Of a DNA stretch of 64,000 nt, positions 1-63,120 are shown piece after piece. The notes under the pieces are model-generated. The model was given only the letters and a program-made list of their open reading frames with translations, was not told the origin of the DNA and made no database searches. The stretch is from a virus. Its lineage: Duplodnaviria; Heunggongvirae; Uroviricota; Caudoviricetes. How positions within the stretch are numbered: the stretch's first letter is position 1; each line of letters begins with the position of its first letter. The DNA lies in the IMG/VR virus record IMGVR_UViG_3300049846_001486, positions 1-64,000 of that record. One strand, given 5' to 3'. Made by a program: the position numbers and the translations under genes.

Positions 1-95
1 ATGCTTTGAACGCCTTTTAATTCTACCTTAGCTCCATTTGGAAAATGGTAGGTGCGGTCTTGTAGTTTAACTTTCTTGAATACTGGTTTAGTCAT
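1..95 (-). CDS. hypothetical protein, N-terminal fragment (gene continues past the window start); N-terminus MTKPVFKKVKLQDRTYHFPNGAKVELKG
   Basis: Minus-strand ATG at 93-95 preceded by a strong RBS (AAGAGGAAAATAT). The frame stays open to position 1. Confidence 0.35.
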   Translation of the reverse strand, partial: MTKPVFKKVKLQDRTYHFPNGAKVELKGVQS

Positions 96-114
96 ATATT
101 TTCCTCTTAAAAGA

Positions 115-235
115 TGGTGGCCAAGGTGGGACTCGAACCCACAAGCCCATTACGGGCGGCAGATTTTATGATGTACACTTTTTTCAAAATGTACAGGGAA
201 AAGTCTGCTGCGTATACCAATTCCGCCACTTGGCC
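115..235 (-). tRNA. tRNA-like gene, type II (long variable arm) with a 39-nt insertion in the anticodon arm; identity unresolved
   Basis: The reverse complement gives a 7-bp acceptor stem GGCCAAG/CTTGGCC, discriminator A and CCA. D-arm is GCGG-AATTGGTAT-ACGC and T-arm is GTGGG-TTCGAGT-CCCAC. The variable-arm hairpin is GCCC-GTAAT-GGGC. Anticodon-stem halves GCAGA and TCTGC are separated by 39 nt instead of 7, and the insert contains a TGTACA...TGTACA hairpin. Confidence 0.45.
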
Positions 236-254
236 ATATTATTATTTATCTATC

Positions 255-830
255 CTATTCTGCCATGTCTCCGTGGTGGTCAACTTTGGATATCTCTTGC
301 TTATCCATATATCTCTTTATTTCTTCAAAAGAAATCGGCCTGTAAGGGGCATAACCTAGTACGAATGGAGCATCTACCCCAACATCAACAGATTTGCCCA
401 TAGGAGGCAGCGAGCCGTGGCTATGGCCGTGTAGCTGCCAAGACCCATGATGGCTCTTGTTCCACACTCGCATCCCGTAATGAAGAAGTACGAGCTTCTG
501 GCGGTCAACCGTCAGTTCTTTGTAATATTGTATAGAAGCGAACACCTTATCTGATATAAGGCGTTGTATGTTATTTTCGATAACCTTATCGTGGTTACCA
601 AGTATTAGATGCTTAATCCCATTTAGAGAATTCATATATCTAACAAGCTCTTCATATTTCATAAAAGCAACATCACCCAGCATCCAAACAATATCATATT
701 GCTGAACTACTGAGTTCCAATTATCTCTAAGAGTCCTATTCATTTCTTCAACATCAGTAAACGGTCTTTTCGAGTATCTTATTATATTTGCGTGACCTAT
801 ATGATTGTCACTAGTAAACCATAGATTCAT
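255..830 (-). CDS. calcineurin-like metallophosphoesterase / Ser-Thr protein phosphatase family
   Basis: Motifs present are SDNHIGH (DxH), LGDVAF (GD), GNHDK (GNHD/E) and GHSHG. RBS GGAGA is present, with TAAATG coupling to the upstream gene. The gene ends in a TAG stop. Confidence 0.8.
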   Translation of the reverse strand: MNLWFTSDNHIGHANIIRYSKRPFTDVEEMNRTLRDNWNSVVQQYDIVWMLGDVAFMKYEELVRYMNSLNGIKHLILGNHDKVIENNIQRLISDKVFASIQYYKELTVDRQKLVLLHYGMRVWNKSHHGSWQLHGHSHGSLPPMGKSVDVGVDAPFVLGYAPYRPISFEEIKRYMDKQEISKVDHHGDMAE

Positions 831-1028
831 TTATTTCTTATCTCCATAATATTCATCACATTCCTTTTTTTGTATACATGCCGCATTTTTAACCATCATG
901 GAATCCCATAAACTTGGGTAAATCATAGAAGACCCGCATTTGGGGCAAATTCCTGCTGATAGTACACTAAATTCTACGATGATTCTGGCCGGTGGCGGTG
1001 GCGGTGGGGCTGGTATATCTTTGTTCAT
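831..1028 (-). CDS. small zinc-ribbon protein with a PPPPPPP tract
   Basis: 65 aa with CPKCG...CIQKKEC Cys pairs, translationally coupled to the downstream phosphatase. Confidence 0.4.
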   Translation of the reverse strand: MNKDIPAPPPPPPARIIVEFSVLSAGICPKCGSSMIYPSLWDSMMVKNAACIQKKECDEYYGDKK

Positions 1029-1042
1029 ATATTTTCTCTATC

Positions 1043-1118
1043 TGGTCCTTCCGGTGGGACTCGAACCCACACACAGTATTTTAGAGACACCTGCTCTAAC
1101 CAATTGAGCTACGGAAGG
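1043..1118 (-). tRNA. tRNA with a CUA anticodon (putative amber/UAG suppressor tRNA)
   Basis: A 76-nt cloverleaf. Acceptor is CCTTCCG/CGGAAGG with A73 and CCA. D-arm is GCTC-AATTGGTTA-GAGC. Anticodon stem is GGTGT/ATACT with two G.U pairs, and the loop is C-U-CUA-A-A, so positions 34-36 read CUA. Variable loop is GTGT. T-arm GTGGG-TTCGAGT-CCCAC is identical to the neighbouring tRNA-like gene. Confidence 0.6.
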
Positions 1119-1215
1119 TTCATTTATATAGGTATGTTAGCATATGTATAATTTCTTGTCAACAAAAGAAAAAGGGGCGTTTAAGCCCCTTTTCTTGAAT
1201 TAGGTATTACTACCA

Positions 1216-2664
1216 TTATTCGTCTTTTGCCGGATTTCCTTTGTTGTCAACCTTGGTATTAACCTGTAGGTCTTTAGCCAACATTAGCGTCATGACATTC
1301 ATCAAGTTTGCCATATCAGCCTGATTACCAGTTGGTACGCCAGCAGCGGATGCGCCACCACCCATGATTGTTACAGACTGTGGTACTGGACGAGTTGCCG
1401 AAGCAGCGGCCCATGTCTGGTGAATCTTGACAGCGGCCTCTAACTTAGTAGCCAAACCGTCGTCGGCCTTGATGCTCTTCTGCTTCTGATAAGCTTCGGC
1501 ATCGGCTCTAACCTTGATAGCCTGAGCATCAAGATTTGCGACTCTGACCTTAATAGCAGCAGCGCGTTCGTCAATCTTAGCCTGTTCTTCGGCTCTGCTG
1601 GCTTCAATCAAAGCCAATGCCTTTGCGGTTTCAGCAGCAGTAGTCTTAGCAATCTGCTCTTTCAAGTTTTCCTGCTGTGCTTCGGCCTGAGCGCGTTCAC
1701 CAGCAGCGATTACATACTGCTTCTGTTCTTCTTCCTGAATCTTCTTTTCACGGGCCTGTTGTCTGGCAGCGGAAGCTTCCTGAATTGATTGCAAACGCTT
1801 TCTGAACTGTGGGTTCGGTTCGAAGTCGGTCACGATGGCCGTTTCTACTGTGATGCCAAACTTCTCGAAAGTGTGGTGCAACTTCAAAGGCTGTCCGTTC
1901 TTATCCAAGATTTTGCTTACGCGGAAAATTACCTTGTATTCGTCCGCTTTAGCACCATAATCCTCTTGGTCTTTACGACGAGCAGAGTCGGCTGTAGCTC
2001 TCTGTTTAGAAGTTTCAAGGATTGGAACCTGAACTTCCTCACGCTGAACCTGATAGATACCAGTTCTCATTTGTTCATCGAAATCCGCAGCGAAAGTAGG
2101 GACGCCGCCGTTGAAGTAATCTTCGGCGCTCATTAACTGTGCTGTGGTTTTCATGGTTCTATCAATAGCCGGAATCAATTCCGTGTGTAGCAAGTTTTCA
2201 GGAGTGCGGTATTCCTGTGCCATCTTTAGGAAGGTAGCCGGGTCGTCTGAAATTCTGAAACGAACAGAAGTTTCCAACTTACCGTCAACCTTGTCTAACA
2301 TGGTTACATTAAGACCTTCTCTCTTGAAAGAGCCATCATCTGAGGTCTGTGTGTTTGATGTAATGACCGATGCGGCCTTTTTCCACGGGGTATAAGTACC
2401 AAACAAATGCATTTTCCAGCCAACGGTCGTTGATACCGATTCGTGACCTAAAATGTTTCTGATATGGTAATTGTAGCCGGGGTCTGCATAGAACCAAACA
2501 TTGCTGATGAATGTGACAGCGATGGCAAGGCCACCAACTCCCAAACTCAAAGCTTTAACCAAACCTTTAGTCCTACCGTAACGAGTTTCGTCCATTCCTT
2601 GGGAGAATTTATACCCAACGAATGTGGCTAAACTCAACAAAACTAACATAAAAATAGCGCCCAT
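1216..2664 (-). CDS. SPFH/band-7 (stomatin/prohibitin-like) membrane protein with a long C-terminal coiled coil
   Basis: N-terminal TM helix, then a roughly 200-aa globular domain, then about 200 aa of Ala/Glu/Lys/Gln-rich coiled coil. Strong RBS AGGAGAAAATAT. The SPFH fold is inferred from architecture only. Confidence 0.45.
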   Translation of the reverse strand: MGAIFMLVLLSLATFVGYKFSQGMDETRYGRTKGLVKALSLGVGGLAIAVTFISNVWFYADPGYNYHIRNILGHESVSTTVGWKMHLFGTYTPWKKAASVITSNTQTSDDGSFKREGLNVTMLDKVDGKLETSVRFRISDDPATFLKMAQEYRTPENLLHTELIPAIDRTMKTTAQLMSAEDYFNGGVPTFAADFDEQMRTGIYQVQREEVQVPILETSKQRATADSARRKDQEDYGAKADEYKVIFRVSKILDKNGQPLKLHHTFEKFGITVETAIVTDFEPNPQFRKRLQSIQEASAARQQAREKKIQEEEQKQYVIAAGERAQAEAQQENLKEQIAKTTAAETAKALALIEASRAEEQAKIDERAAAIKVRVANLDAQAIKVRADAEAYQKQKSIKADDGLATKLEAAVKIHQTWAAASATRPVPQSVTIMGGGASAAGVPTGNQADMANLMNVMTLMLAKDLQVNTKVDNKGNPAKDE

Positions 2665-2726
2665 ATATTTTCTCCTATGCTGGGATTGTGAATTGTACAG
2701 ATAACATTTCCAAAAGTCAACACTTG

Positions 2727-3371
2727 TTATCTTTTTATTTTTCTTCTTGCCATATCCAATTTTAACTTAGAAACTTTTGAAGTAAATACTACACCATGTA
2801 AGTGTTCGTATTCATGTAAGAATGCTCTAGCCCATATTCCTTCAAACTCTACGATATGTTCTTTACCATTTAAATCGAAGAATTTTCCTTTGACATTATA
2901 AGGTCTTGGTATTTTCAAAAACAATCCCGGAAAACTTAAACATCCTTCCATGATGGTTTCTGTTCTGTCCGATATTGAAAGAATTTCTGGATTGATACAC
3001 ACCCAATATCCGAAAGTTTTTTGTCCAATTACGAACATATTCAAATCTAAATTTACCTGTGGTGCGGCGAGACCTATACCCTGATTCTGAATCATAACTG
3101 CCAGCATGTTCAATGCCGTATCAGTCAAGTCTTCCGCCTTTCCAGTATAAGGAGGTATTTCTTTTTTCAATACATCATCATATTGGTCAACTAAGGTTAA
3201 TGTATCAAATATTTTCCCATGTAATTTTTGTCTCAATTCACCGGGAGTGAAGGTTGTATGAAAAGTTGTTCTATAATGGTCAATAATAGCAGGAGCTATA
3301 TCAGCCATACTCAAATTCCCCAATTGGTCGGAATTAATATCCAAGCCTACTCTGGTTAGCGTTTCATCCAT
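2727..3371 (-). CDS. def: peptide deformylase with an 85-aa N-terminal extension
   Basis: All three PDF motifs are present in order: GIGLAAPQ, EGCLSFPG and HEYEHLHG. RBS GGAGA lies 8 nt upstream of the ATG at 3371. Confidence 0.85.
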   Translation of the reverse strand: MDETLTRVGLDINSDQLGNLSMADIAPAIIDHYRTTFHTTFTPGELRQKLHGKIFDTLTLVDQYDDVLKKEIPPYTGKAEDLTDTALNMLAVMIQNQGIGLAAPQVNLDLNMFVIGQKTFGYWVCINPEILSISDRTETIMEGCLSFPGLFLKIPRPYNVKGKFFDLNGKEHIVEFEGIWARAFLHEYEHLHGVVFTSKVSKLKLDMARRKIKR

Positions 3372-3919
3372 TCTAATGTCTCCATTATGTTCTTATGGTC
3401 TTTCAAATCTGCCAAATTATATACAGGAACCTTATGAGCTATAGCAATTCTTATGGCCTGTCCTGTTCCTCCGGTATCTATAGTAGTCTGATGTTTAGCA
3501 CCATCAGGAGTCCAACATATAACAAAATCTACCGGGGAGTCCAATGTCTTATCTAACACTTGATATGTATTTCTAGCCATCAGGCGTTTAGCTATGGAGG
3601 AAAGTCTATTCCAAACAGGATGATGTTTCTTTGCTATATCATATGCGTAATCGTCTATTTCGGAAATGTACGCTTCGCCGTCACCAGATTTATTTTGAAA
3701 TTCATCGTGAGGCAAAAATATGGTCATATATTCTCTAAGAGGCTTATTGTGTTCTGAACAATAAGCCTTACATCCCTTTTCGAAGGCCGAGTCCGCTCCT
3801 GCGGCACCCCCACTTAAAAGACGATAAGATTTTTTGGCAGCATAGTATCCAAACTCTTCCATTATCTCTAATATGAGAGAAGGAGTCTGCCTCGAACCTA
3901 TTCCGCAATATTTCTTCAT
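3356..3919 (-). CDS. DprA/Smf-like Rossmann-fold (SLOG superfamily) protein
   Basis: Contains GIGSR...LSGGAAGADSAFEKG and GGTGQAIRIA, which resemble the DprA/LOG nucleotide-binding motifs. Its ATG overlaps the PTH2 stop (ATAATG). Confidence 0.45.
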   Translation of the reverse strand: MKKYCGIGSRQTPSLILEIMEEFGYYAAKKSYRLLSGGAAGADSAFEKGCKAYCSEHNKPLREYMTIFLPHDEFQNKSGDGEAYISEIDDYAYDIAKKHHPVWNRLSSIAKRLMARNTYQVLDKTLDSPVDFVICWTPDGAKHQTTIDTGGTGQAIRIAIAHKVPVYNLADLKDHKNIMETLEWMKR

Positions 3920-4344
3920 TATAGTAATGGTAGATTTCCCGTTATGGGTTCTAGTTGGTCGGGGTATGCCGGTCCCACAGCAACAGCCGTATAGGTAGGA
4001 ACTCCGTGGAATTCGGTATTACCCTTGTCTTGAATCAAGGCACAAAGCAAATTGCTGTCCTTGGCCTTCTGATAAAGGTCCAAAAGTTCTTGCTCAGAAT
4101 TGACATATACAACTATTTTGGTGAAAGCTCCGTTAAGCCATTCATCTAAGGCTTTATGGTCTTTATATTTCAATACTTTAATTGGATAATATATAGACGA
4201 GTCTTCCCCATCATCGTATGGAATTTCATTATTTTCCATCAAATCTAGTATGACCTTCATGGAGGCGTGGCTTGCTTGGGCAGCAATTTTACCCTTCCTC
4301 ATATTAAGGTCTTTTCTTATAATTATAATCTGTTTAGGCAACAT
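3919..4344 (-). CDS. peptidyl-tRNA hydrolase, PTH2 family
   Basis: MLPKQIIIIRKDLNMRKGKIAAQASHAS matches the PTH2 signature (GKGKIAAQCSHA in archaeal/eukaryotic Pth2). The start is placed at the internal Met at 4344, which has RBS GGAGA. The 25 upstream codons of the six-frame ORF lack an RBS. Confidence 0.8.
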   Translation of the reverse strand: MLPKQIIIIRKDLNMRKGKIAAQASHASMKVILDLMENNEIPYDDGEDSSIYYPIKVLKYKDHKALDEWLNGAFTKIVVYVNSEQELLDLYQKAKDSNLLCALIQDKGNTEFHGVPTYTAVAVGPAYPDQLEPITGNLPLL

Positions 4345-4437
4345 AAAAATATCTCCATCCTTGATTATATGATATTTGCAATTTTTAATCAAGTGTCGTA
4401 CAATAAATAATAAATACAAGATTAATGGAGATTAATT

Positions 4438-4956
4438 ATGAAAATTGGTGAAATCTTAAAGTCCACTTTATCCGAAGCTTTCGATGATTTAGAAGTAGAT
4501 ATTGATGATTTGGGGGTAGATGATGGTTCTCCAATTGAACCTGTATTAAAGCCTATTGGTGGGGAAAATTCAGCCACCGCCGATGAATTAACTCCTATTC
4601 AGAAAATTATATTGGCCAAAATAGCTAAAGGTACCTTAACCATTGATAGCGCAACGGATAAGCAGTTGGTTGTCATGGATGAATTAATGGATGTTGGTTT
4701 ACTTGACGCTCAGTACGAAATCACCCCAGAAGGGTCTACTGCCGCTGATATGGTTATCAACAAGAATACCCAAGACCAGATAGTTGCCCAGAAGATTGCC
4801 CAAAAGAACGGTGCTGATAAATTCGTCAAAGATAGACGAGTAAGAGACGCTTATAAGGGCGAATTAGATGACGAAGTTGCTGGCGACGATGAGGGTGTAT
4901 CTGCGCGTGACCGCGTTGGTTTTGACCCTGAATTCTATACTGGCGACAGAAGTTAA
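4438..4956 (+). CDS. acidic hypothetical protein
   Basis: 172-aa ORF rich in Asp/Glu. An ATAAATAATAAATAC late-promoter-like motif lies about 25 nt upstream. Confidence 0.4.
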   Translation: MKIGEILKSTLSEAFDDLEVDIDDLGVDDGSPIEPVLKPIGGENSATADELTPIQKIILAKIAKGTLTIDSATDKQLVVMDELMDVGLLDAQYEITPEGSTAADMVINKNTQDQIVAQKIAQKNGADKFVKDRRVRDAYKGELDDEVAGDDEGVSARDRVGFDPEFYTGDRS

Positions 4957-7163: not shown

Positions 7164-8232
7164 CGCCTAAATCCTTATATACTTTAATCAATTTCTGGTT
7201 ATCTATCTTAGGTTCTTTGATACGCCCTAGCAATTCTACCACAATGTTGGTAGTAGTTTCCAGTTCCATTCCTTCCAAATCCATATCCGTGTCAGTCAAC
7301 GCTTCATCGGTTGACATTTCCTCAAAGGTCAATTCTCTAAGCCCATATTTTTTCATGAGAGTATCACGAAGTTCGTTACTATCTTCTAGAGTCAAGTCTA
7401 TGTCGGCTAGGCATCTTACCCTTGCGTTCTTCTTAAGGTGGGTGTCCGGGTCTTCTATAATCTCGCTTAAGTTGGCTTTAACATAAGTAGGCATACCGAA
7501 GTCTGCTCCCCAGTTATAGAATGATGATGCGTCATCGTCGTAAGAATATAAAAAGGCTCCGCGTTCAGCGTCATTAGCATCGCTGAAGTCTGCCGGAAAT
7601 GCGTTGCCGATGTAACAGACATTATCCTTACATTGGCGCTTATGGAAGTGTCCAGAGAATATATGCTTTACGGCTTTGTATGGCTTGTGGTCCGGACCAT
7701 GTTCCAACACTCTAGTATCACCAGTTATAACGAATCCGGAGAACTCGAAATGTCCCCACCATATCGGCATGTTCGTGTATTGTAACAGTTCTGGATACTC
7801 TTCCGGCATCAAATACGGACTAACCAAAGCTCCCTTATCTCCCAACATAGGGAATATCTTCGGGGAATCATAAACTAGAGTTATGTTTTCAAACGGAGCG
7901 AATATTTCAGTAGTGTATACATCTCTCTTATCACGGTAATACATATCGTGGTTACCGACGCACATGATTACCGGAATCCCAAGCTGGTTTAATAGTTCCG
8001 CTCCCATATGAGAGTATTTGAGAGTTAAGCCATTGATAGCAGCGCGATGTTCGTGCCAGTCCCCCAAGAACATTATATGGTCTACCTTTTTCTTTTTTGC
8101 CAACTCACAGAACCATTTAATGAAATTGATACAATCTTGGTTATGAGTTTCACTATTGTTCTTTCGTCCAAAGTGTATGTCAGTAAAAACTAAAGCTTTC
8201 TTTAGTTTGACCGATTCATCTAGTTTTGACAT
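7156..8232 (-). CDS. 47: recombination nuclease, Mre11/SbcD family (T4 gp47-like)
   Basis: Phosphoesterase motifs FTDIHFG, FLGDWHE and GNHDM are present. It sits in the T4 47-46 arrangement next to gp55. Confidence 0.85.
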   Translation of the reverse strand: MSKLDESVKLKKALVFTDIHFGRKNNSETHNQDCINFIKWFCELAKKKKVDHIMFLGDWHEHRAAINGLTLKYSHMGAELLNQLGIPVIMCVGNHDMYYRDKRDVYTTEIFAPFENITLVYDSPKIFPMLGDKGALVSPYLMPEEYPELLQYTNMPIWWGHFEFSGFVITGDTRVLEHGPDHKPYKAVKHIFSGHFHKRQCKDNVCYIGNAFPADFSDANDAERGAFLYSYDDDASSFYNWGADFGMPTYVKANLSEIIEDPDTHLKKNARVRCLADIDLTLEDSNELRDTLMKKYGLRELTFEEMSTDEALTDTDMDLEGMELETTTNIVVELLGRIKEPKIDNQKLIKVYKDLGDV

Positions 8233-8235
8233 ATG

Positions 8236-8832
8236 TTACTCTTCCGGGTTAAGTTCGTCCGGGATATTTTCCGAATCTACTACTGGGTCTACGACTATTG
8301 GTTCCGATTTCTTAGCTTTTATGGAAGGAGTCGCATTGACCTCTTCGGTAACATCTCTGGGTTCTGGATTGAATGGATTGAATACACCAGAATTACCATA
8401 ATCTAGTTCGTCCGAGGTTGTGCCTCTGGAATGCTCATCGTCGTATCTTTCGGTGAAGCCATAGGACGGGTTATCTCCTTGCTCCATCAGCAATCTGTCT
8501 CTTATATCGCGTTCATCGCGTTCGATATTTAGGTACTGGTAGAATGCGTGTTTTATGGTTTGGGTATAATAAGCAAAGGGATTTTTACTTTTTTGAGGAT
8601 TGAAAGATTTCCAAGATTTACATAAGGTCATTAGAGCGAAGGCTTGCATATCTTCATTGTAGGTATAATTAACATATGTTCCTTTCTGGGCATACTTGGC
8701 ACATAATAACATGAACATTTTTGCCAATTCGTTAGTCATCTTCCCCTGTGCTAAACTTTTTTCTACTTCTGCTAAGAGCGATTTATTGTTTAAATAATTC
8801 TTCTTTGGTTTTTCCGCAACATCTTTTGTCAT
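8236..8832 (-). CDS. 55: late-transcription sigma factor (T4 gp55-like)
   Basis: N-terminus MTKDVAEKPKKNYLNNKSLLAEV resembles T4 gp55 (KPKYNYVNNKELL). It is about 198 aa and adjacent to 47/46 as in T4. TATAAATA-type motifs recur upstream of structural genes in this window. Confidence 0.7.
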   Translation of the reverse strand: MTKDVAEKPKKNYLNNKSLLAEVEKSLAQGKMTNELAKMFMLLCAKYAQKGTYVNYTYNEDMQAFALMTLCKSWKSFNPQKSKNPFAYYTQTIKHAFYQYLNIERDERDIRDRLLMEQGDNPSYGFTERYDDEHSRGTTSDELDYGNSGVFNPFNPEPRDVTEEVNATPSIKAKKSEPIVVDPVVDSENIPDELNPEE

Positions 8833-11756: not shown

Positions 11757-11764
11757 TATAAATA
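11757..11764 (+). promoter_or_regulatory. T4-type late promoter motif TATAAATA upstream of the portal gene
   Basis: Exact TATAAATA lies 20 nt upstream of the ATG at 11784. Confidence 0.45.
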
Positions 11765-11783: not shown

Positions 11784-13520
11784 ATGTCGAAGTTAGCTAA
11801 GTTTTACAAGATAGTAACCCCAAAGAGCGCCGCTGCCGATGTTAGAGATAACATTGACATTACCGGCATGGGAGGCGGTGCCTACGGTAATTATACTTGG
11901 TATCATCGTTTAGTACAGGGTTCCCCCGCTCGTTTGACCAGATATCGTGAATACGACATTATGGATAACGATGTTGAAGTGGCCAGAGCTTTGGATATTA
12001 TAGCCGAAGAAATGACCGGAAATAACCCTAAATCTAACCTTCCACTAGAACTTCACATAACAGACACCAATGTACCTGCTCATATAGTCGCCACTTTAAA
12101 GGCGGCTTTGAATACATGGTGTAAATTACAAAACTGGGATAAACGCCTTTATGGTGTTGCCAGAACTACCATCAAATACGGAAATTGCTTTTTCTTAAGA
12201 GGAAAAGGTAATAATAAAGGGAAGAAGTGGAAATATGTAAATCCTAAAGCCGTGGTCGCAGCAGTAACCTCCGAAGACGATATTACGGATGTTCGCGGCT
12301 GGCATATTAAGGTTGATACAAAGCGTATTAATGGTCTTAACCAAGGTTATTCTTTGGGTTACAATTCCAATGCTAATCCGGGGGATTATAATGTTGAACA
12401 GTTCCCGGCTGATGATGTTATTACTTTCGCTCTAGAAGATGAATTTAGCGAAGATGCTCCTTTCGGTAAGTCGGTATTAAGTGCTGTTTATAGAACCTTC
12501 AAACAGAAAGAATTGTTGGAAGATTCGATAATAATTTACAGAATAGTAAGAGCGCCAGAAAAAAGAGTATTCTATATTGATACTGGTAAGATGCCTCCGC
12601 ACCAAGTCGCCACTCACTTAGAACAAATCAAAAACGAAATTAAACAAAAGAAGATTCCTACCTTCCAAGGCGGTCAATCTCAAGTTGAATCCGTCTATAA
12701 TCCTCAGTCTATGTCAGAAGATTTCTTCTTCTCCAAGAGAGCAGACGGTTCCGGGTCTTCGGTAGAAACCTTACCGGGCGGTCAAAACTTAGGCGAATTA
12801 ACTGATTTGAACTACTTCTACAGCAAATTGTGGAGGGGGTTAAGAATTCCTGCTTCCTATATGGATAGTGAAAAGGAAGGTTCTTATAACGATGGTAAGG
12901 TCGGAGTCGCTTATATCCAAGAAATCAAATTCTCTCAATATGCTGAACGCTTACAGAAAGACCTAGAAATTACTTTGGATAAGGAATTCAAGAGATTCTT
13001 ATACGAGACTGGCATCAGTATTGACCCAACTTGCTATAACATTCTATTACCCGCTCCTTCTAACTGGTCCAAGTCCAAGCAGCAAGACATTGATGCTAAC
13101 TTGCTTAATAACTTCAATACCGCCGTTGGTAATGAATTCTTATCAAGAAGATTCGTTCTTGAACGCTATTTACAATTGAGTAAGGAAGAAATTGCCACAA
13201 ACGAAAGAATGAGAGCCGAAGAATTAGGATTACCATTTGAAGGTGGTATGAATAATTTAGGAAAGATTTATTATCCTGAAGTGGCCGAGGCCGGTGGTTT
13301 TGATGGCGCTGCCAGCGGTGGCGGCGGTACTAGTGGTGGCGGAGGTGGCGGAATTCCATTAGGCCCAGATACAGAATTAGATGATATTGAAGGCGAAATG
13401 GGCGGTGATGAAACCGATTTAGGCGGTGAAGATACTGGCGAAGAAGCTGGTGGAGATAATGAGGCTCCAGATTTAGAAGCTCCTGAAAAGGGACTTCCTC
13501 AAGAAAAGCCACCTAAATAA
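11784..13520 (+). CDS. 20: portal vertex protein (T4 gp20-like)
   Basis: About 578 aa, directly upstream of the prohead protease. Internal sequence VYNPQSMSEDFFF resembles conserved gp20 segments. The C-terminal tail is Gly-rich and acidic. Confidence 0.7.
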   Translation: MSKLAKFYKIVTPKSAAADVRDNIDITGMGGGAYGNYTWYHRLVQGSPARLTRYREYDIMDNDVEVARALDIIAEEMTGNNPKSNLPLELHITDTNVPAHIVATLKAALNTWCKLQNWDKRLYGVARTTIKYGNCFFLRGKGNNKGKKWKYVNPKAVVAAVTSEDDITDVRGWHIKVDTKRINGLNQGYSLGYNSNANPGDYNVEQFPADDVITFALEDEFSEDAPFGKSVLSAVYRTFKQKELLEDSIIIYRIVRAPEKRVFYIDTGKMPPHQVATHLEQIKNEIKQKKIPTFQGGQSQVESVYNPQSMSEDFFFSKRADGSGSSVETLPGGQNLGELTDLNYFYSKLWRGLRIPASYMDSEKEGSYNDGKVGVAYIQEIKFSQYAERLQKDLEITLDKEFKRFLYETGISIDPTCYNILLPAPSNWSKSKQQDIDANLLNNFNTAVGNEFLSRRFVLERYLQLSKEEIATNERMRAEELGLPFEGGMNNLGKIYYPEVAEAGGFDGAASGGGGTSGGGGGGIPLGPDTELDDIEGEMGGDETDLGGEDTGEEAGGDNEAPDLEAPEKGLPQEKPPK

Positions 13521-21849: not shown

Positions 21850-21857
21850 TATAAATA
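21850..21857 (+). promoter_or_regulatory. T4-type late promoter motif TATAAATA
   Basis: Exact TATAAATA lies 23 nt upstream of the ATG at 21880. Confidence 0.45.
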
Positions 21858-44146: not shown

Positions 44147-46282
44147 ATGACCACATTAGTTAGCGCAGGAGTAGATGTTCCACTTATAGACCAGAGTTTT
44201 TATATTCCGGCTGGAGCAGGGACAGTACCATTAATTATAATCGCCACGGCTGCTGAAAAAACGCAAGCTGACGGCACCACGGCAGCATTAGGAACCTATG
44301 AATCTGGCGTAGTCAGAACCGTAACCTCTGGCAAACAGGCAGCAGAATTGTATGGTGTTCCAAAGTTCTATACAGATGCTTCCGGCAATCCTTTACACGG
44401 TGATGTTAGAAACGAATACGGTCTAGATGCTTTAGCTAAATTCCTTGAACTTTCAAATAGAGCATATGTACTAAGAGCAAACATCAACCTTAATGATGAC
44501 TTGGAAGACATTAAAGCTTTGTGGACCTCTAAGATTTCCGAAGCAGCAGACTATTTGAACACCTTAGTAACAGCTTATATCACAGAATATAACGACACTA
44601 ACGGTTTAGTCCCAACAGACACCGGCTATAAAGAATCAGTAACCACCGCAGAATTGAAGACCTTAGTTGATGAAGCTATGGTTGATGTTTTTGCTTTCTA
44701 TTCTTTCAACAGCACAGCATTCTCTGAAGCTTTCATTCAGGACCACACAGTTGCTTATCCGGGCTATCAGGATGTATTGTTTGAAACCACAGCAGGTTAC
44801 ATTATCGGCACCGACGCTACAGGTTTGCAGAATGATACAACTGCCTATGGATTTGAAGCTGATGTAGTAAGCACGGGCGGTACAGACTCTATTCAGATTT
44901 CTGTTCAGGGTCAGAATGCTCAAACATTCACAGCATTGATTACAGCATTGAATACCGCAGTACAGGCTGCTACCTCTTCGTCCACAACGGTCGAGTTGGT
45001 ACAGGGAAAAATCAGAATCACTTCTGACTTGACTGGTGCTACATCTTCTGTAGAAATCACAAGCGACGGTTACGGTGGAACCACAGCATTGTTCTCAAGC
45101 TTGAACTTGTTCGATTCTATTGATACCCCAGTAGCAGGTAAGGGCGTACAAACATTGTCCGTCTATAACGATGACTACACAACGGTTGTTGATTCTTACG
45201 AAGGTATGGATTCTTTGATTGACGCATGGACCTCCGGTTCTATCATTTCTACAGAGTTCACTCCTTCTGAAGCTGAAGGTCTATTATTGACAGCAGCCGC
45301 AGAATTCGACAATACAAAGGAATTCAAAAACGAAACTTCATTAGGCGCAAATGACGCTGCTAAGAGAGCAGAAGTTGTCAAACAGTTGACAGCAATCATC
45401 AAAGACCCTAATGTGGCTATCCGCACAGAAGCTATTGAGTATTCATTAGTCGTATGTCCGGGTTTCCCTGAAGTAACAAATGAGTTGAATGACCTTTCCA
45501 CAGACTTGAAGGAAGAAGTATTCGTAATCGGTGAAACACCATTCGATAAGGCTCCGACTGGTCCTAACGGTTTGGTTGAATGGGCACAAAGTCCATCCTT
45601 GGTAAATTCGGCAAATGTCGCTTACTACTATCCTCACGGTTTGTCTTCAAACATTGACGGTGCTACAATCTTAACGACAGCAGCTTCCACAATGTTGAGA
45701 GTATACGCTTACTCTGACGACAAGGGCGAGCAATGGTATGCCCCAGCCGGTCCTACCCGTGGCGTAATCACAAACTTGGATGCAATCGGTTATGTTTCCG
45801 GTACATTGGGTACAGCAACCGAATTCGTAGAGAACATGATTGACGAAGGTACAAGAGACGAGTTAACCAGCAATAAGATTAACCCAATCTCTTTCATCAA
45901 CGGTAGAGGCATTATCGTAATGGGTCAGAAGACCACTTACGGCTTATCCTCTGCATTAGATAGAGTCAATGTATCTCGTTTGACCAAGTACATTAAGAGA
46001 AGCTTGCGTAAGAACTTGTTCGCATACTTGTTCGAACCAAACGACGAAATTACCAGAAAGAATGCAAAGGCAACCGCCGACAGCTTCTTGGCTGATTTGA
46101 TGGGAAGAAGAGGGTTGTACGACTTCGCCACATTATGTGACGAATCTAACAACTACGGTGAGCGTATTGACAGAAACGAACTTTGGATTGATGTTGCAAT
46201 CAAACCAGTAAAAGCTGTCGAGTTCATCTATGTCCCAGTAACAATCGCAAGAACCGATGCAAACTTGGGTACAGGCAGATAA
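44147..46282 (+). CDS. 18: tail sheath protein (T4 gp18-like)
   Basis: 711 aa with a strong RBS (AAGGAG). It is followed by a strong intrinsic terminator and precedes the tube gene. Confidence 0.65.
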   Translation: MTTLVSAGVDVPLIDQSFYIPAGAGTVPLIIIATAAEKTQADGTTAALGTYESGVVRTVTSGKQAAELYGVPKFYTDASGNPLHGDVRNEYGLDALAKFLELSNRAYVLRANINLNDDLEDIKALWTSKISEAADYLNTLVTAYITEYNDTNGLVPTDTGYKESVTTAELKTLVDEAMVDVFAFYSFNSTAFSEAFIQDHTVAYPGYQDVLFETTAGYIIGTDATGLQNDTTAYGFEADVVSTGGTDSIQISVQGQNAQTFTALITALNTAVQAATSSSTTVELVQGKIRITSDLTGATSSVEITSDGYGGTTALFSSLNLFDSIDTPVAGKGVQTLSVYNDDYTTVVDSYEGMDSLIDAWTSGSIISTEFTPSEAEGLLLTAAAEFDNTKEFKNETSLGANDAAKRAEVVKQLTAIIKDPNVAIRTEAIEYSLVVCPGFPEVTNELNDLSTDLKEEVFVIGETPFDKAPTGPNGLVEWAQSPSLVNSANVAYYYPHGLSSNIDGATILTTAASTMLRVYAYSDDKGEQWYAPAGPTRGVITNLDAIGYVSGTLGTATEFVENMIDEGTRDELTSNKINPISFINGRGIIVMGQKTTYGLSSALDRVNVSRLTKYIKRSLRKNLFAYLFEPNDEITRKNAKATADSFLADLMGRRGLYDFATLCDESNNYGERIDRNELWIDVAIKPVKAVEFIYVPVTIARTDANLGTGR

Positions 46283-47896: not shown

Positions 47897-49042
47897 ATGG
47901 CAAATTTTCAAATATTACCCCGTCCAAATGTACAGGAAGTCATTGACGAATTTATTGGTAAGAAATTCGGAAAGCTTAAAGAACGCAAATTTGACTCGGC
48001 TTGGCAATTAACAAAAACTCCAGATGGTAAAGAGGATTATAGAGTTAGTGATGACTTCGGCGGATTAGAAGCCCCGAAACTTAAATTCTTATTCACTATA
48101 GAATTTGAATTGAACGAACAATATAAAATTGATGCTATAAAAAACTACATAAATGAATCTAATGCTGATAGTTTGAAAGATTGTATGTTTGCCCTTAAAT
48201 CAGCATCTAGACCTAACGCCACAATAGAATATCAGGATGTTAACTATTACAACTATAGAACTAAAGTTGCTACTAAAATGGACTTTGGTAAAATAACTAT
48301 TTCCTTTTACGATGATTCAAGTAATAAAGCTCAGAGATTGATGGCATTATATACCAATGCTGTAAGCCCAATTTCCAACGCATATCAAGCAATTGGAGCG
48401 GCTGTAGAAGCCTCTAATGCGGCTGGAGCAGCTTTAAATCCGATTTCCCAAAGTACCACTATACCTGCCGCTTCCAACGATATAGATACTTATCATCCAA
48501 ACTTAAGAGCAACAATAGGTCCATTACTTAATAGATTTGGAGTATTTAAGCGTATAAGAATTTCTCAATGGTTTTTAACAAATTCCTTGTCTTTGGGAAA
48601 CGATGTGGCTACAGCCAATGAACCTGCCCTTACAGAATTAACCACCAATTCTGAATCCGCGCCAACTATAGATTTAACGCAACCTCTTACGACAAATTCA
48701 GCAGCAATTACAACTTCTGATAAACCAACATCTACTCAAGTTTATGCTAGAATAAATTATGATTTCATAAACCCAAAAATAGAAAACTATGAATTTGATG
48801 AATTGGATATGGCCGCTTCAGAAGTTAGCATGATTAACGCCACTTTTAATTGTGATGTATTTACTATGAGTTATGACAAAGTTACTGATATACAATATGA
48901 CCCGACAAGCAAAAAGAAGAAAAAATCAACTTTTGAAAAAATAATCGAAGATGAATTGTTAGCTTTCAAGAATATACCACAACAAGTATTGGATGTTGGT
49001 TTAGAAAAGGGGATTAATAAGGTTTTGAAAGGATTCCCATAA
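47897..49042 (+). CDS. tail tube-associated protein candidate (gp48/gp54-like?)
   Basis: 381 aa, immediately after the tube gene. GATAAATAC motif upstream. No diagnostic motif. Confidence 0.3.
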   Translation: MANFQILPRPNVQEVIDEFIGKKFGKLKERKFDSAWQLTKTPDGKEDYRVSDDFGGLEAPKLKFLFTIEFELNEQYKIDAIKNYINESNADSLKDCMFALKSASRPNATIEYQDVNYYNYRTKVATKMDFGKITISFYDDSSNKAQRLMALYTNAVSPISNAYQAIGAAVEASNAAGAALNPISQSTTIPAASNDIDTYHPNLRATIGPLLNRFGVFKRIRISQWFLTNSLSLGNDVATANEPALTELTTNSESAPTIDLTQPLTTNSAAITTSDKPTSTQVYARINYDFINPKIENYEFDELDMAASEVSMINATFNCDVFTMSYDKVTDIQYDPTSKKKKKSTFEKIIEDELLAFKNIPQQVLDVGLEKGINKVLKGFP

Positions 49043-49512
49043 TGTCAAAGATAAGAAGAGATAAAAGATGGAAGCAAGGGTTATACACACCCCGATATCC
49101 TGAAAAATATCTTGGAAATGTTAATGAGATATTTTACAGGTCTTCGTGGGAATTGAATGCTTTTAAGATGCTTGACGGTAACCCCAATGTGATTGGGTGG
49201 GCTTCTGAAGAAATAGCCATACCTTACGCCAAGCCTATGGTTAAAGGTAACCATTTGTACTATATAAATTCCATTTATTATCCGGATTTATATGTGGAAT
49301 ATAATGATGCCGAAGGAAACTTTGTTAGAGAATTAATAGAAATTAAGCCACATAAACAGACTAAACCATCCAGAGCCAGAAATTATAGTAAGAAATTGAA
49401 TGAAAACTATACATTTCAAGTGAATAAACATAAATGGGAAGCTGCTGTAGCGTGGTGCGAAAAGAGAAACATTAAGTTTAGCGTGGCTACCGAAAAAAGC
49501 ATCTTTAAGTAG
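49042..49512 (+). CDS. PD-(D/E)XK-fold protein, possibly a gp4-like head completion protein
   Basis: YYPDLYVEY...ELIEIKP gives a D...E-x-K nuclease-fold signature. 156 aa. Ends in a TAG stop. Confidence 0.4.
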   Translation: MSKIRRDKRWKQGLYTPRYPEKYLGNVNEIFYRSSWELNAFKMLDGNPNVIGWASEEIAIPYAKPMVKGNHLYYINSIYYPDLYVEYNDAEGNFVRELIEIKPHKQTKPSRARNYSKKLNENYTFQVNKHKWEAAVAWCEKRNIKFSVATEKSIFK

Positions 49513-58791: not shown

Positions 58792-58799
58792 TATAAATA
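58792..58799 (+). promoter_or_regulatory. T4-type late promoter motif TATAAATA
   Basis: Exact match upstream of the ATG at 58863. Confidence 0.4.
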
Positions 58800-59367: not shown

Positions 59368-60747
59368 ATGAAAGCTGACACTATTTTTGTGCAGGTTGCG
59401 AGCTACCGTGACCCACAATTGATTCCGACTTTAGTTGACATGATTGACAATGCGGCCAAGCCACAAAATCTACATATAACCGTATGTTGGCAGCGCGGCC
59501 CAGAAGAAACCGAAGAAATGTTTTTCGAGAAAGGTTTCAAATTTATCAATAGACTTCCAAATTCAAAAGTTGAAGGTGAAGTAGTCACCTTAGAACGCAA
59601 CAAAGCGCAGATAAAATTAATTGATATTCATTTCCACAAGACCAAGGGCGCTTGTTGGGCAAGAAACCAAATACAGCAATTGTATGATGGTGAAAAATAT
59701 ACCCTACAGTTAGATTCCCACCACAGATTTGCCCCAAACTTTGATTCCGAATTAATCAAAATGATTAAAGGTTTACAGAAAGACGGGGTTAAGAAACCAT
59801 TATTGACGGGCTATATTCCTTCTTTTGACCCGGAAAGAGACCCGGAGGCCAGAGTACAAGAACCTTGGAAGATGGATTTTGACAGATTCATCCCTGAAGG
59901 CGCAGTATTCTTCTTACCATCTACTATGGAAGGGTGGAGAGAGATGACCAAACCTTTCCCTTCTAGATTCTATTCCGCTCACTTCTGTTTCACATTAGGA
60001 CAGTTCTGTGAAGAAGTACAACATGACCCAGAATATTTCTTCCACGGGGAAGAAATTGCAATCGCTGTTAGAGCATTCACGCATGGTTATGATTTGTTCC
60101 ACCCGCACCTACCATTAGTGTGGCACGAATATACCCGTAAAGGTAGAGTCAAGGTATGGGATGACCATACTACAGGCCAAAAGAATAAGGGTAGAGTCGA
60201 ATTGGATTGGGTAGAACGCAACAACATCTGCCATAGAAGAAATAGAATTCTTTTCGGCATGGATGGCGAAGACCCAAATACCATAGATTTTGGTAAGTAT
60301 GGATTCGGTAAAGAAAGAACATTAAGACAGTACGAAGAATATGCCGGTATCAGCTTCCAGTACAGAGGCGTACAGCAGAAGACCTTAGACCGTCTTCCTC
60401 CGCCGAATAATGTACCATACAATACCGAAGAAGAATGGAAGAATACTTTTAGTATGTCTAACGATATACGAATCTTATTACACAGGTCTGAACTGTTTAA
60501 TGAAGAAGGTAAATTGGAAGATGATTATGATTTCTTCTATGTTGGCGCTCATGATATTGACGGTAAAGAACTTCACAGAAAGGACTTGACTGAAGTTGAT
60601 ATTAAAGAAAAATTAATGCACGAATGGATAGATTATAGATTCATATTCATTTCAGTAAATACACCAGTAACTTACACAATTTGGCCTCATAGCAAATCTA
60701 AAGGCTGGTTAAAAAAGATAGATAAGAAGATAGTAGAAGGGACTTAA
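59368..60747 (+). CDS. GT-A fold glycosyltransferase with a DxH motif, resembling polypeptide O-GlcNAc/GalNAc-transferases (GT60/GT27-like)
   Basis: N-terminal TIFVQVASYRDP and the catalytic-region YTLQLDSHHRF (a TxLDxH DxH motif as in ppGalNAc-T FLDSHCE). 459 aa, strong RBS. Confidence 0.5.
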   Translation: MKADTIFVQVASYRDPQLIPTLVDMIDNAAKPQNLHITVCWQRGPEETEEMFFEKGFKFINRLPNSKVEGEVVTLERNKAQIKLIDIHFHKTKGACWARNQIQQLYDGEKYTLQLDSHHRFAPNFDSELIKMIKGLQKDGVKKPLLTGYIPSFDPERDPEARVQEPWKMDFDRFIPEGAVFFLPSTMEGWREMTKPFPSRFYSAHFCFTLGQFCEEVQHDPEYFFHGEEIAIAVRAFTHGYDLFHPHLPLVWHEYTRKGRVKVWDDHTTGQKNKGRVELDWVERNNICHRRNRILFGMDGEDPNTIDFGKYGFGKERTLRQYEEYAGISFQYRGVQQKTLDRLPPPNNVPYNTEEEWKNTFSMSNDIRILLHRSELFNEEGKLEDDYDFFYVGAHDIDGKELHRKDLTEVDIKEKLMHEWIDYRFIFISVNTPVTYTIWPHSKSKGWLKKIDKKIVEGT

Positions 60748-60750
60748 TAA

Positions 60751-63120
60751 ATGAAAGATAAGTTAATTCTTTCGGCTTACGGCTCACATAACGCAGCAAT
60801 AGCCATGTATTACAAAGGCCAGTATCATGTAGTAGAAGTAGAGCGTTGGCTAAACTACAAAAATATCGGTCTTAGCAACTATATGCCAGTTCGCAATATG
60901 CAATTGGTATTCGACCAAATAACCGAATGGTTATTGAATAAGACTGATAGAAGCGATGTTGATGTATTCTTGACCGACTATCTACCTCACATAGTTCCTA
61001 AGTTTAATTACAAGGAAAAAATCGGTTTCGAGCATCATATGGGTCATGCCGCCACCGCTTTCTATCAGTCTCCATATCAAAAATCCTTAGTCTTCACCTT
61101 CGATGGTGGCGGCGATGGTGCCTATTTCAATGTATATCTAGCTGATAGACATAAGGGAATAGAGTTGATTGACAAGTTCAATCAAGATTTAGGATTCCCA
61201 TACATGATTCTTTCGGATTATCTAAAGGATATCAAGAAAGAATCATTGACCATAGCTAACTTGGTCTATGCCGGTAAACTTATGGGATTATGCTCATACG
61301 GTAAAGTACAGGAAGAATGGCTACCCCACTTCGATGCTTTCTATGATAAGTTCAATTATTTCGGTAATGCCTATATCGGTGGGGCCGAAGCTAGATATTC
61401 TGCCATCACAGAATTGATGACAGCTATTGGTGTTGAAGATTTCGACTTTGAAGATACTAGATTGGAAGGGCAGATTGCTTGGGATATAGCAGCAACTACC
61501 CAAGCCGCTTTCGAGAGGCAGTTCTTCAAGTATGCTCAAAAGTTCTTAGATATGTACCCAGACCTTCCGGTATGTTTGGCTGGCGGTTGCGCTTTGAATG
61601 TTCTTTTGAACACTAAGATTTTACAGCAAAGAGGCGGTAATGTATTCATTCCACCAAACTCAAATGACTGTGGTATAGCAGTAGGCGGATTGTTGTGGTA
61701 TCAAAAGCCCCAGCATCAAGTTGATTTAACTTATTCAGGCTTGCCGATAATGGACGAGACTGAATTGGGAATCTATTTAGAAGACCACAAATTTGATGTT
61801 GTGGAAAATGTTTCATTGAAAGAACTGGCAGCATTCTTAGCCAAGAATTACATTGTAGGATTCATACAAGGCAACTCTGAACACGGAGCTAGAGCCTTGG
61901 GTAACAGAAGTATATTGTGTAATCCTGTCGGGAACATGAAAGATGTTATAAACGATAAAGTGAAACATAGAGAATGGTACAGACCATTCGCCCCTATGGT
62001 GCGTCTGGAAGATGTGGATAAGTATTTCGATGGTTTCATCGGAGAATCCAGACACATGACCTTCGTTGCTACGGTACGCGAAGAATGGAGAGATAAGTTA
62101 CCAGCTATTACTCACGAAGATAATACTGGTAGAATCCAAACCTTGACCAGAACCCAAAACGAAAAAATTTATGACTTGATTACAGAGTTTGAAACTTTCT
62201 CTGGGCACGGAGTCTTGTTGAACACTTCGTTCAACATAAACGGCAAGCCTATATTGACAAGATACGCAGATGCCTTGAGCTTGTTAGAAAGCTCGCAGAT
62301 GGATGCAGTATACTTTGCTGATAGAAAGATTCTAGTATTCAAGAGAAACGAATCCAAATCCTTTACGAAATCTTTAGAGAAAACTGATGGTATGGCTCCA
62401 TTGCTCTTGGAAACTACCGTAAATGTGATGGTATTCCCGGAAACAGCCGAAGAACTAACGGACAAATATATAAATGATTTGGTTAAAGTTTCCAAGTCGG
62501 TCCCGTATTTGACCATAGTTACTACTGAAGAATATGCTCAAATTATCAACAGAAGCATAACAGGAAACAATGTTAGATATCATTATATCGGTGATAACAG
62601 ACTGTACTATTCTCATGTTATAGAGAAAGCAAAGAGTCTGTATCCTTCGTATAAGACCAATAAAATACATTATTTCTCTAAATTCATAACAATCTTATGG
62701 GCTAAAGAGGTTCTCAGAGATAATGTATTCGGAACTAAATATCATGTATTCATAGACCCATCACAGTTTACGGAAAATTTCTCATATAATTTCGTAAGAG
62801 ATGTTTCTATACTAGCTTTGGCTGCAAAGATTGACGAGTTCAAGATATTAGTATCTGCAACTAAGAAACCTATAGATAGTTCCATACCAGAAGAATATCT
62901 TACTAAGAAGTACGAGAAAATGCCAGATATGGCTCCGCTACCTGCCATTATTGCTGGTAATGTCGAGTCTATAGAATGGTTAAGCTCCAATTTTGAGGGT
63001 ATGATATTGTGGCACGGGCAGCAGCGCCTAGTAACAAAGGCTGCTGATTTCATGTTAGCTTCTGCCGCAGAATATGAACATATGTACAAATATTTACCGG
63101 TGGAAAATAACGATGATTAA
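60751..63120 (+). CDS. NodU/CmcH/TobZ-family O-carbamoyltransferase with a roughly 250-aa C-terminal extension
   Basis: N-terminal Kae1/YgjD-like domain (LSAYGSHNAAIAMY, GFEHHMGHAATAF) and the C-terminal carbamoyltransferase motif GNSEHGARALGNRSILCNP. Confidence 0.8.
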   Translation: MKDKLILSAYGSHNAAIAMYYKGQYHVVEVERWLNYKNIGLSNYMPVRNMQLVFDQITEWLLNKTDRSDVDVFLTDYLPHIVPKFNYKEKIGFEHHMGHAATAFYQSPYQKSLVFTFDGGGDGAYFNVYLADRHKGIELIDKFNQDLGFPYMILSDYLKDIKKESLTIANLVYAGKLMGLCSYGKVQEEWLPHFDAFYDKFNYFGNAYIGGAEARYSAITELMTAIGVEDFDFEDTRLEGQIAWDIAATTQAAFERQFFKYAQKFLDMYPDLPVCLAGGCALNVLLNTKILQQRGGNVFIPPNSNDCGIAVGGLLWYQKPQHQVDLTYSGLPIMDETELGIYLEDHKFDVVENVSLKELAAFLAKNYIVGFIQGNSEHGARALGNRSILCNPVGNMKDVINDKVKHREWYRPFAPMVRLEDVDKYFDGFIGESRHMTFVATVREEWRDKLPAITHEDNTGRIQTLTRTQNEKIYDLITEFETFSGHGVLLNTSFNINGKPILTRYADALSLLESSQMDAVYFADRKILVFKRNESKSFTKSLEKTDGMAPLLLETTVNVMVFPETAEELTDKYINDLVKVSKSVPYLTIVTTEEYAQIINRSITGNNVRYHYIGDNRLYYSHVIEKAKSLYPSYKTNKIHYFSKFITILWAKEVLRDNVFGTKYHVFIDPSQFTENFSYNFVRDVSILALAAKIDEFKILVSATKKPIDSSIPEEYLTKKYEKMPDMAPLPAIIAGNVESIEWLSSNFEGMILWHGQQRLVTKAADFMLASAAEYEHMYKYLPVENNDD

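Follow-up and report, generated by a model that had tools for sequence, protein, structure and literature searches.

The 64,000-nt stretch analysed here (positions 1 to 64,000 of IMG/VR record IMGVR_UViG_3300049846_001486, referred to below as the window) derives from a T4-like, contractile-tailed jumbo phage related to Xanthomonas phage XacN1 and carries a gene for a tRNA with the anticodon CUA. The gene lies within a run of co-oriented features on the minus strand comprising, in order, genes for PTH2, a DprA/SLOG-like protein, peptide deformylase and a Band_7 protein, a terminator-like hairpin, a promoter-like site, the CUA tRNA, an open reading frame (ORF) of 65 amino acids (aa), a metallophosphoesterase gene and a second tRNA (Table 1). 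The remainder of the window encodes a portal, prohead protease, gp55-like late sigma factor, SbcC/SbcD, baseplate hub and wedge proteins, sheath, tube, a family B DNA polymerase and DsbA, a T4-type complement that agrees with the description of the tRNA in the initial annotation as phage-encoded. The best named relatives of the portal protein belong to the jumbo phages XacN1, Xoo-sp13 and RAS14 (53-56% identity; 53% for XacN1), and an identical portal protein is recorded on a 76.8-kb JGI metagenomic contig. No megablast match to the window was found in 50,697 phage records. A Logan contig of 12.4 kb (L001) is 100% identical to window positions 1-7425 and extends 5,023 nt past the window start, where it carries the gp23 capsid gene; together with the window it brings the available sequence to 69 kb.

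Under default settings ARAGORN called a single tRNA in the window, at exactly 1043-1118 on the minus strand (no strand had been named initially), with the anticodon CTA at position 35. A search of the whole 64-kb window with Infernal against 4227 Rfam families gave a match to RF00005 at 1046-1118 on the same strand, covering model positions 1-71 of 71 with 65.4 bits, compared with a gathering score of 29 (E = 5.7e-12). The 5' half of the tRNA, read from the window, is CCUUCCG-UA-GCUC-AAUUGGUUA-GAGC-A-GGUGU-CUCUAAA, and the 3' half following this loop is AUACU-GUGU-GUGGG-UUCGAGU-CCCAC-CGGAAGG-A-CCA. The molecule possesses a 5-bp anticodon stem, a 9-nt D-loop containing GG and a 4-nt variable loop (GUGU), together with the canonical elements U8, A14, G18G19, U33 and the T-loop UUCGAGU. 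Its acceptor end is formed by C1-G72, C2-G71, U3-A70 and A73. The cloverleaf is also the minimum free energy (MFE) fold. Being full length, above the gathering score and able to form a cloverleaf, the gene belongs to RF00005 as a canonical elongator tRNA; the 76-nt cloverleaf with intact T-arm and encoded CCA that was originally proposed is borne out by ARAGORN, Rfam and the MFE fold alike.

The RF00005 alignment sets the anticodon loop as C32 U33 C34 U35 A36 A37 A38, a loop of seven nucleotides (CUCUAAA) that places CUA at positions 34-36 between U33 and A37, as had been described. The initial annotation named a shifted anticodon register as the way in which its reading might fail. Two independent programs, ARAGORN and Rfam, agree on the register, so this objection does not apply. 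The tRNA is genuine and its anticodon is CUA, complementary to UAG. A loop of the form C32-U33-CUA-A37-A38 is the context of efficient amber suppressors and of tRNAs that read codons starting with U. ARAGORN labels the gene 'tRNA-Pyl', a label that reflects the anticodon only. Genuine tRNA-Pyl has a 6-bp anticodon stem, a 3-nt variable loop, a short D-loop lacking G18G19 and no canonical T-loop, and is accompanied by pylS and pylBCD; the architecture here is canonical and no Pyl genes were present among the scanned window ORFs. The naming of such CUA genes as tRNA-Pyl by ARAGORN is an annotation artefact.

Related loci were sought in two ways. A pattern scan of IMG/VR for the D arm together with the CUCUAAA loop recovered at least 119 loci, many on contigs of 100-600 kb, and among the matches listed the flanks were mostly standard-coded, with a few clearly TAG-recoded. 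The set obtained in this way is biased by the pattern itself, and a search blind to the tRNA was therefore added, in which a four-sequence profile of the phosphoesterase retrieved 80 loci. A CUA tRNA lies just upstream of the phosphoesterase in 8 of the 14 closest loci (at least 47% identity), represented by four distinct sequences besides that of the window (L213 = L223, L214, L215 = L216 and L217 = L218), at approximately 50% identity between neighbouring proteins. Comparison by tblastx showed the order deformylase-tRNA(CUA)-phosphoesterase in L213/L223 and L217/L218. Among the closest loci, three have no tRNA and three have a tRNA array, while L219 carries a tRNA-Trp(CCA) between PTH2 and deformylase. 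The window tRNA itself is divergent: its exact 26-mer is absent from IMG/VR, its 3' 22-mer is absent from GTDB genomes and no phage record matches it above 78% identity.

The five distinct CUA tRNAs, that of the window included, share 62-78% pairwise identity. Across their alignment the loop U-CUCUAAA-A is invariant, and 98.8% of cells in the acceptor, anticodon and T stems pair, although both sides have changed in 11 of 17 pairs. None of 500 shuffles reached the observed stem covariation and slid registers came nowhere near it. In a larger set of 12 sequences, compensatory changes were found in 14 of 21 pairs. Retention of the loop while the stems co-vary indicates that the UAG-reading anticodon is under selection, and the comparison thus argues that selection maintains both the fold and the CUA anticodon itself. 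The earlier proposal of a putative UAG-reading tRNA accordingly gains from these data, resting as it now does on a sound structure and on an anticodon conserved in diverged relatives, a pattern that a working amber suppressor would be expected to show.

The genetic code of the phage was examined through its genes. Read with the standard code, 95% of the window falls within ORFs of 100 aa or more; small standard ORFs, or one that continues past the end of the window, occupy the few gaps, and the only ORF pairs joined across a TAG are antisense artefacts. The initial annotation suggested a search for in-frame TAG codons in genes; none was found in the 69 kb of window genes and L001 extension, including gp23, portal, protease, baseplate, sheath and tube. 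Likewise, no in-frame TAG occurs in the portal, protease, helicase, SbcCD and hub homologues from 40 IMG/VR loci fetched with the portal protein (mostly 47-59% identity), and the flanking sequences of tRNA-bearing relatives contained no genuine one. Structural genes are the class typically recoded, and their lack of in-frame TAG indicates that they are standard-coded here. TAG moreover still serves as a terminator, ending 4 of 45 window genes, which does not accord with code 15. Neither RF2 nor an aminoacyl-tRNA synthetase gene was detected in PHROG and Pfam scans of the window ORFs, such genes being optional in known systems. The CUA tRNA is not evidence of recoding, and the suggestion that it drives stop-codon recoding found no support in the window with its 5-kb extension, in the 40 related loci or in the flanks of the tRNA-bearing relatives.

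Stop codon use is strongly skewed. The 45 long window genes end in TAA (41), TAG (4) and TGA (0), and comparable phage loci of similar G+C content (n = 197) in 61% TAA, 12% TAG and 27% TGA. Off-frame TGA is abundant in the window and the trinucleotide itself is not avoided. Avoidance of TGA as a sign of a host with reassigned TGA (cf. PMC10746230) was considered and rejected: a gene on the L001 extension (9026-9901 region) ends in TGA with an ATGA overlap, indicating that TGA continues to act as a terminator, and TGA interrupts no gene. Behind the four TAG stops a second in-frame stop follows after 1, 2, 2 and 3 codons, a proximity seen in 14 of the 41 TAA genes (hypergeometric p ~0.02, on four TAG genes). 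With 41 of 45 genes ending in TAA and the four TAG stops backed within 1-3 codons, the visible genes of the phage would be nearly insensitive to suppression of UAG.

Two tRNA-bearing loci show a further arrangement of TAG stops. In L213 (246-962, plus strand) and L254 (2294-3142, plus strand), both of which carry the CUA tRNA, a TAG-ended gene is followed 2-4 codons on by a gene starting in the same frame, and read-through of UAG would fuse the two products. Long in-frame continuations were observed in only 3 of 10 TAG-ended ORFs of tRNA-bearing relatives and may be due to chance.

PTH2, peptide deformylase and metallophosphoesterase form a recurring module in phages of the XacN1 group (172.8-174.5 kb in XacN1), and its junctions in different members, L213-L219 among them, hold tRNA genes for CUA, Trp, Pro, Thr or Leu. 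PTH2 adjoins the phosphoesterase in XacN1 and Xoo-sp13 also. The Band_7 gene does not occupy this position in relatives, as judged by tblastx, and when used as a synteny probe it yielded no relatives in IMG/VR or metagenomes and only distant matches in cultured phages. The hairpin that follows it is terminator-like and would separate the transcription unit of the tRNA from the Band_7 gene. The promoter candidate stops 15 nt short of the 5' end of the tRNA and could also drive the downstream 65-aa ORF and the phosphoesterase; sites of this type occur about as often as chance predicts for so AT-rich a region (4 found against 3.7 expected), and the call therefore depends on position only. A T4-type late promoter for the tRNA was discounted, the only candidate being a 7/8 match (TATAAATG) at 1121-1128 on the minus strand, just upstream of the gene. 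Full late-promoter motifs (TATAAATA) precede the portal gene, a gene for a virion protein and one further ORF by 21-65 nt, consistent with the presence of a gp55-like sigma factor.

The 65-aa ORF had no family match and was rejected as a conserved partner of the tRNA, as it shows no similarity to the equivalent ORF in locus L080. The phosphoesterase gene ends in TAG, followed by GAT AGA TAA; this stop is not conserved, homologues ending in TAA or TGA.

Table 1. Features of the window discussed in the text.
Feature	Position	Strand	Basis and remarks
tRNA-Leu(UAA) body with 33-nt insert (second tRNA)	115..235	-	Rfam 47.1 bits; ARAGORN intron mode; fold z = -4.8
Metallophosphoesterase	255..830	-	PHROG 547, E 1e-55; conserved downstream neighbour of the CUA tRNA
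65-aa ORF	831..1028	-	Begins 14 nt beyond the CCA of the tRNA; predicted as a gene on L001
CUA tRNA gene	1043..1118	-	76 nt with encoded CCA; ARAGORN, Rfam RF00005, cloverleaf MFE
Sigma-70-like promoter candidate	1134..1162	-	TTGACA-17 nt-TAACAT, TG before -10; consensus scan, 10/12
Terminator-like hairpin and T-run	1169..1194	-	10 pairs, 5 G-C; ends the Band_7 gene
SPFH/Band_7 protein gene	1216..2664	-	Pfam PF01145; between peptide deformylase and tRNA
Peptide deformylase	2727..3371	-	PHROG 2890, Pfam PF01327
PTH2 peptidyl-tRNA hydrolase	3919..4419	-	Pfam PF01981, E 5e-32
gp55-like late sigma factor	8236..8832		
T4 late-promoter motif	11757..11764	+	Motif match
Portal	11784..13520		
T4 late-promoter motif	21850..21857	+	Motif match
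ORF of 4457 aa	29903..43276	+	Single ORF; no Pfam match
Sheath	44147..46282		
TnsA-like endonuclease ORF	49042..49512	+	PF08722; TAG-ended
T4 late-promoter motif	58792..58799	+	Motif match
GlcNAc-type glycosyltransferase and NodU/CmcH-type carbamoyltransferase genes	59368..63120	+	Adjacent genes

The second tRNA of the run was missed by ARAGORN under default settings. It has a class II Leu body with a long variable arm, A73, CCA and an anticodon loop of 40 nt, and the whole RNA folds as an extended-arm cloverleaf in which the insert forms a 10-bp hairpin. The insert lies between U34 and A35, the site of the cyanobacterial group I intron, and at 33 nt is far too short for a group I intron. Introns in tRNAs of jumbo phages are mentioned in PMC13037316. 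ARAGORN intron mode mostly fuses neighbouring tRNAs of arrays when applied across all loci and was unusable for estimating the frequency of such inserts. A further ARAGORN call, a tRNA-Leu with the anticodon AAG, lies at 11210-11294 of L001, approximately 3.8 kb left of the window start and just after gp23; A34 is unusual for bacteria and Rfam gave no match at gathering score. In four other loci from IMG/VR and metagenomes (L004, L097, L140 and L152) ARAGORN reported 'tRNA-Leu' genes of approximately 75 nt (CAA, UAG, UAA) with short variable loops, that is, Leu anticodons on class I bodies, some with C1-G72.

Three observations concern the remainder of the window. The ORF of 4457 aa directly follows the baseplate wedge genes and presumably encodes a giant baseplate or fibre protein. 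The TnsA-like ORF, directly downstream of the second of two tail-tube paralogues, is probably a mobile or homing endonuclease. The adjacent glycosyltransferase and carbamoyltransferase genes are possibly involved in DNA or virion modification.

The amino acid carried by the CUA tRNA was approached through its identity elements. The initial annotation noted a resemblance to tRNA-Pro in the acceptor stem, and this stands to the extent that C1-G72 and A73 are present, as they are in 18 of 18 phage tRNA-Pro compared. The resemblance does not extend to the anticodon: these phage tRNA-Pro all have xGG anticodons and most have G37, where the CUA tRNA has U35, A36 and A37. Across GTDB genomes and metagenomes, tRNAs sharing the exact 5' 25-mer (acceptor strand and D arm) are those for Lys, Ile, Arg, Asn and His, and never for Pro. 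The Pro-like end is therefore not diagnostic, the same 5' half being found in Lys, Ile and Arg tRNAs. C1-G72/A73 recurs in the positional counterpart of L213/L223, and phage tRNA-Lys with this combination exist. Likeness to tRNA-Pro at the acceptor end is insufficient for assigning identity, and by the tests applied the gene is a relative of neither tRNA-Pro nor tRNA-Pyl.

Assignment by overall similarity was also attempted and rejected, since the E. coli BLAST, unpaired-position, whole-sequence and 5'-half results conflict and none is decisive. The only long BLAST match in E. coli is to tRNA-Trp. The unpaired positions equal those of that tRNA (U8 A9, D-loop AAUUGGU-A, A26, loop CUC-AAA, variable GUGU, T-loop UUCGAGU) at all but four points: C35 is replaced by U, the D-loop gains a U, the variable loop is one base shorter and the discriminator is A73 where tRNA-Trp has G73. 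In the acceptor stem all but one pair differ, E. coli tRNA-Trp having A1-U72 and the window tRNA C1-G72. The E. coli amber suppressor su7 (supU) is itself tRNA-Trp with C35 changed to U. Among approximately 600 phage and metagenome tRNAs, however, the best neighbours by unpaired positions are tRNA-Lys (27 of 28), above Trp; tRNAs for Ile, Arg, Met and Trp are almost as similar, and by whole sequence the nearest neighbours are Arg, Met and Asn. The loops of Trp(CCA), Lys(CUU; CUCUUAA) and Gln(CUG) tRNAs each lie one substitution from CUCUAAA.

The E. coli LysRS identity set comprises A73 and U35, both of which are present in the CUA tRNA. The corresponding GlnRS set comprises U1-A72, G73, G2-C71 and G3-C70; the CUA tRNA differs from it, and the phage tRNA-Gln compared start with U and carry G73. 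By these rules the combination of A73 and U35 would favour LysRS, and the lack of G73 and U1-A72 would disfavour GlnRS and TrpRS. No homologue examined has an in-frame TAG, so the amino acid cannot be read from residues aligned with TAG.

CUA suppressor tRNAs in standard-code phages have been described before, XacN1 among them. XacN1 possesses two CUA suppressor tRNAs per terminal repeat and 18 TAG stops, and in silico read-through of these stops found no target (Yoshikawa et al. 2018, PMC5852040). It is the closest cultured relative of the window phage (portal 53% and phosphoesterase 54% identical), belongs to the same lineage and shares with it the CUA anticodon, the standard code and the rarity of TAG stops. 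The suppressors of XacN1 lie in a tRNA array within 66-kb terminal repeats, whereas the window copy is solitary and stands beside deformylase/Band_7 and phosphoesterase. XacN1 and Xoo-sp13 share a PTH2-X-phosphoesterase-Zn-ribbon module, which there lacks tRNA, deformylase and Band_7.

Code-15 phages (crAss-like, Lak and other gut clades; Ivanova 2014, Yutin 2021, Borges 2022, Peters 2022) likewise combine a canonical CUA tRNA, presumed to be charged by a host synthetase, with a standard-code host. Their late genes contain many in-frame TAG codons, read as Gln, in contrast to none in 69 kb of the window phage. Suppressor tRNAs without detectable reassignment also occur in crAss-like and Agate phages (Yutin 2021, PMC7886860; Borges preprint), where they are described as recent, a single genome among closely related ones having gained the suppressor by one point mutation or by acquisition. 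The clade of the window differs in having kept CUA at 62-78% tRNA identity and approximately 50% identity of neighbouring proteins. Among annotated phages, the cultured Sinorhizobium jumbo phage Phosso (PV764938), which is densely annotated, has a 'tRNA-Pyl(cta)' among small ORFs and dispersed tRNAs; this is the best database match to the family consensus, yet it is only ~79% identical, has two acceptor-stem mismatches and shares no neighbouring genes that could be seen. What is new here is a sequence-divergent CUA tRNA and its apparent maintenance beside the phosphoesterase across a standard-code clade, a modest addition.

Taken together, these data suggest that the gene probably encodes a working amber suppressor, kept by selection in a T4-like jumbo phage of the XacN1 group that otherwise uses the standard code. 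Host RNase P and 3' nucleases would excise the tRNA from its transcript, and a host aminoacyl-tRNA synthetase would charge it, with Lys (U35 and A73) or Gln the likeliest by the E. coli rules and Trp or Pro also candidates. The charged tRNA would then compete with release factor 1 and cause partial read-through of UAG in the infected cell, the targets being either host messages that end in UAG or a few phage genes outside the available sequence. The tRNA is not the driver of a genome-wide TAG-to-sense recoding of the crAss or Lak type.

Several observations weigh against this reading. The anticodon stem is weak (one G-C, two A-U and two G-U pairs), the centroid fold omits it and the folding z-score of -1.42 is unremarkable by thermodynamics alone. 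XacN1, Xoo-sp13 and L210-L212 have no CUA tRNA at this locus, so the module can do without it. The counterparts differ in discriminator (A73 or G73) and first pair (C1-G72 or G1-C72), so one common amino-acid identity is not assured. Relatives with the tRNA use TAG stops with normal frequency (10 of 78, compared with 119 of 750 for tRNA-free loci), and their TAG stops lack nearby back-up stops; the 'suppression-proofed genome' of the window is thus not general and depends on four genes, and its back-up stops may be a by-product of the extreme TAA bias. Finally, the 69 kb seen belong to a genome of probably at least 300 kb, and the remainder might hold a lysis cassette or further genes containing in-frame TAG.

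The last point bears on a fairly unlikely alternative, in which a partial recoding of the code-15 type is confined to a few genes with in-frame TAG beyond the available sequence, for example those for lysis or other late functions, the tRNA acting as a timer for their translation, a role already suggested for recoded gut phages. Phage suppressor tRNAs are strongly associated with TAG recoding concentrated in structural and lysis genes (Borges et al. preprint; Yutin et al.), no lysis genes were identified in the window, and the conserved anticodon points to selection for UAG decoding; the TAG-ended genes of L213 and L254 that continue in frame into the next gene would also fit. Against this, all visible structural genes, the 4457-aa protein among them, are free of in-frame TAG, as are the portal neighbourhoods of the 40 relatives and the flanks of the tRNA-bearing ones. 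TAG is, moreover, still a genuine stop, and a complete genome of the group, that of XacN1, was checked and offered no read-through target (PMC5852040). It is also conceivable, though unlikely, that the tRNA is a stand-alone, host-directed tool which this standard-code lineage keeps within its PTH2, deformylase and phosphoesterase module, whereby partial read-through of UAG would corrupt proteins of the host or of competitor phages, defence proteins included, and near-exclusive TAA termination with tandem stops would protect the genes of the phage itself. Under a variant of this proposal, the recurrent C1-G72/A73 may mark an unusual identity, e.g. Pro or Lys and not Gln. Suppressors without reassignment have been discussed both as pre-emergent steps towards recoding and, through read-through of host genes, as a means of anti-defence (Yutin et al., PMC7886860; Borges et al.). 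The initial annotation further raised the hypothetical role of shielding the phage from host strategies that depend on termination at UAG.

Quite unlikely is a neutral passenger, a sense tRNA (Trp CCA, Lys CUU or Gln CUG) that mutated to CUA and is functionless and maybe poorly charged. Such pre-emergence has been described in crAss-like phages (Yutin 2021, PMC7886860), L219 provides a tRNA-Trp(CCA) in the same module, and the near identity to E. coli tRNA-Trp at unpaired positions, the weak anticodon stem and the absence of the tRNA from the locus in XacN1, Xoo-sp13 and L210-L212 would all be compatible with it. Over such a distance a neutral gene would, however, have lost the anticodon or the fold, yet all five CUA tRNAs, at 62-78% identity, retain CUCUAAA and, through compensatory changes, full stem complementarity. 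The tRNA might also not read UAG in vivo, either because C34 is modified in a lysidine-like manner or because the molecule serves as a decoy or replacement against host nucleases that target tRNAs. Counteracting anticodon nucleases is a well-known role of phage tRNAs, and the neighbourhood holds a phosphoesterase and PTH2. Nevertheless, no sequence feature indicates a C34-modifying enzyme or a nuclease target and a decoy ought to have retained a sense anticodon, making this explanation very improbable.

Suppressor tRNAs of phages are usually explained as machinery for stop-codon recoding. The present case adds evidence that selection can keep a UAG-reading tRNA in a lineage that shows no recoding in its visible genes, late structural ones among them, a situation shown also by XacN1 and many IMG/VR contigs. 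Candidate purposes of such tRNAs are manipulation of the host, the timing of a few hidden genes, or a stepping stone to recoding, and a small set of syntenic loci is now available in which their role may be tested.

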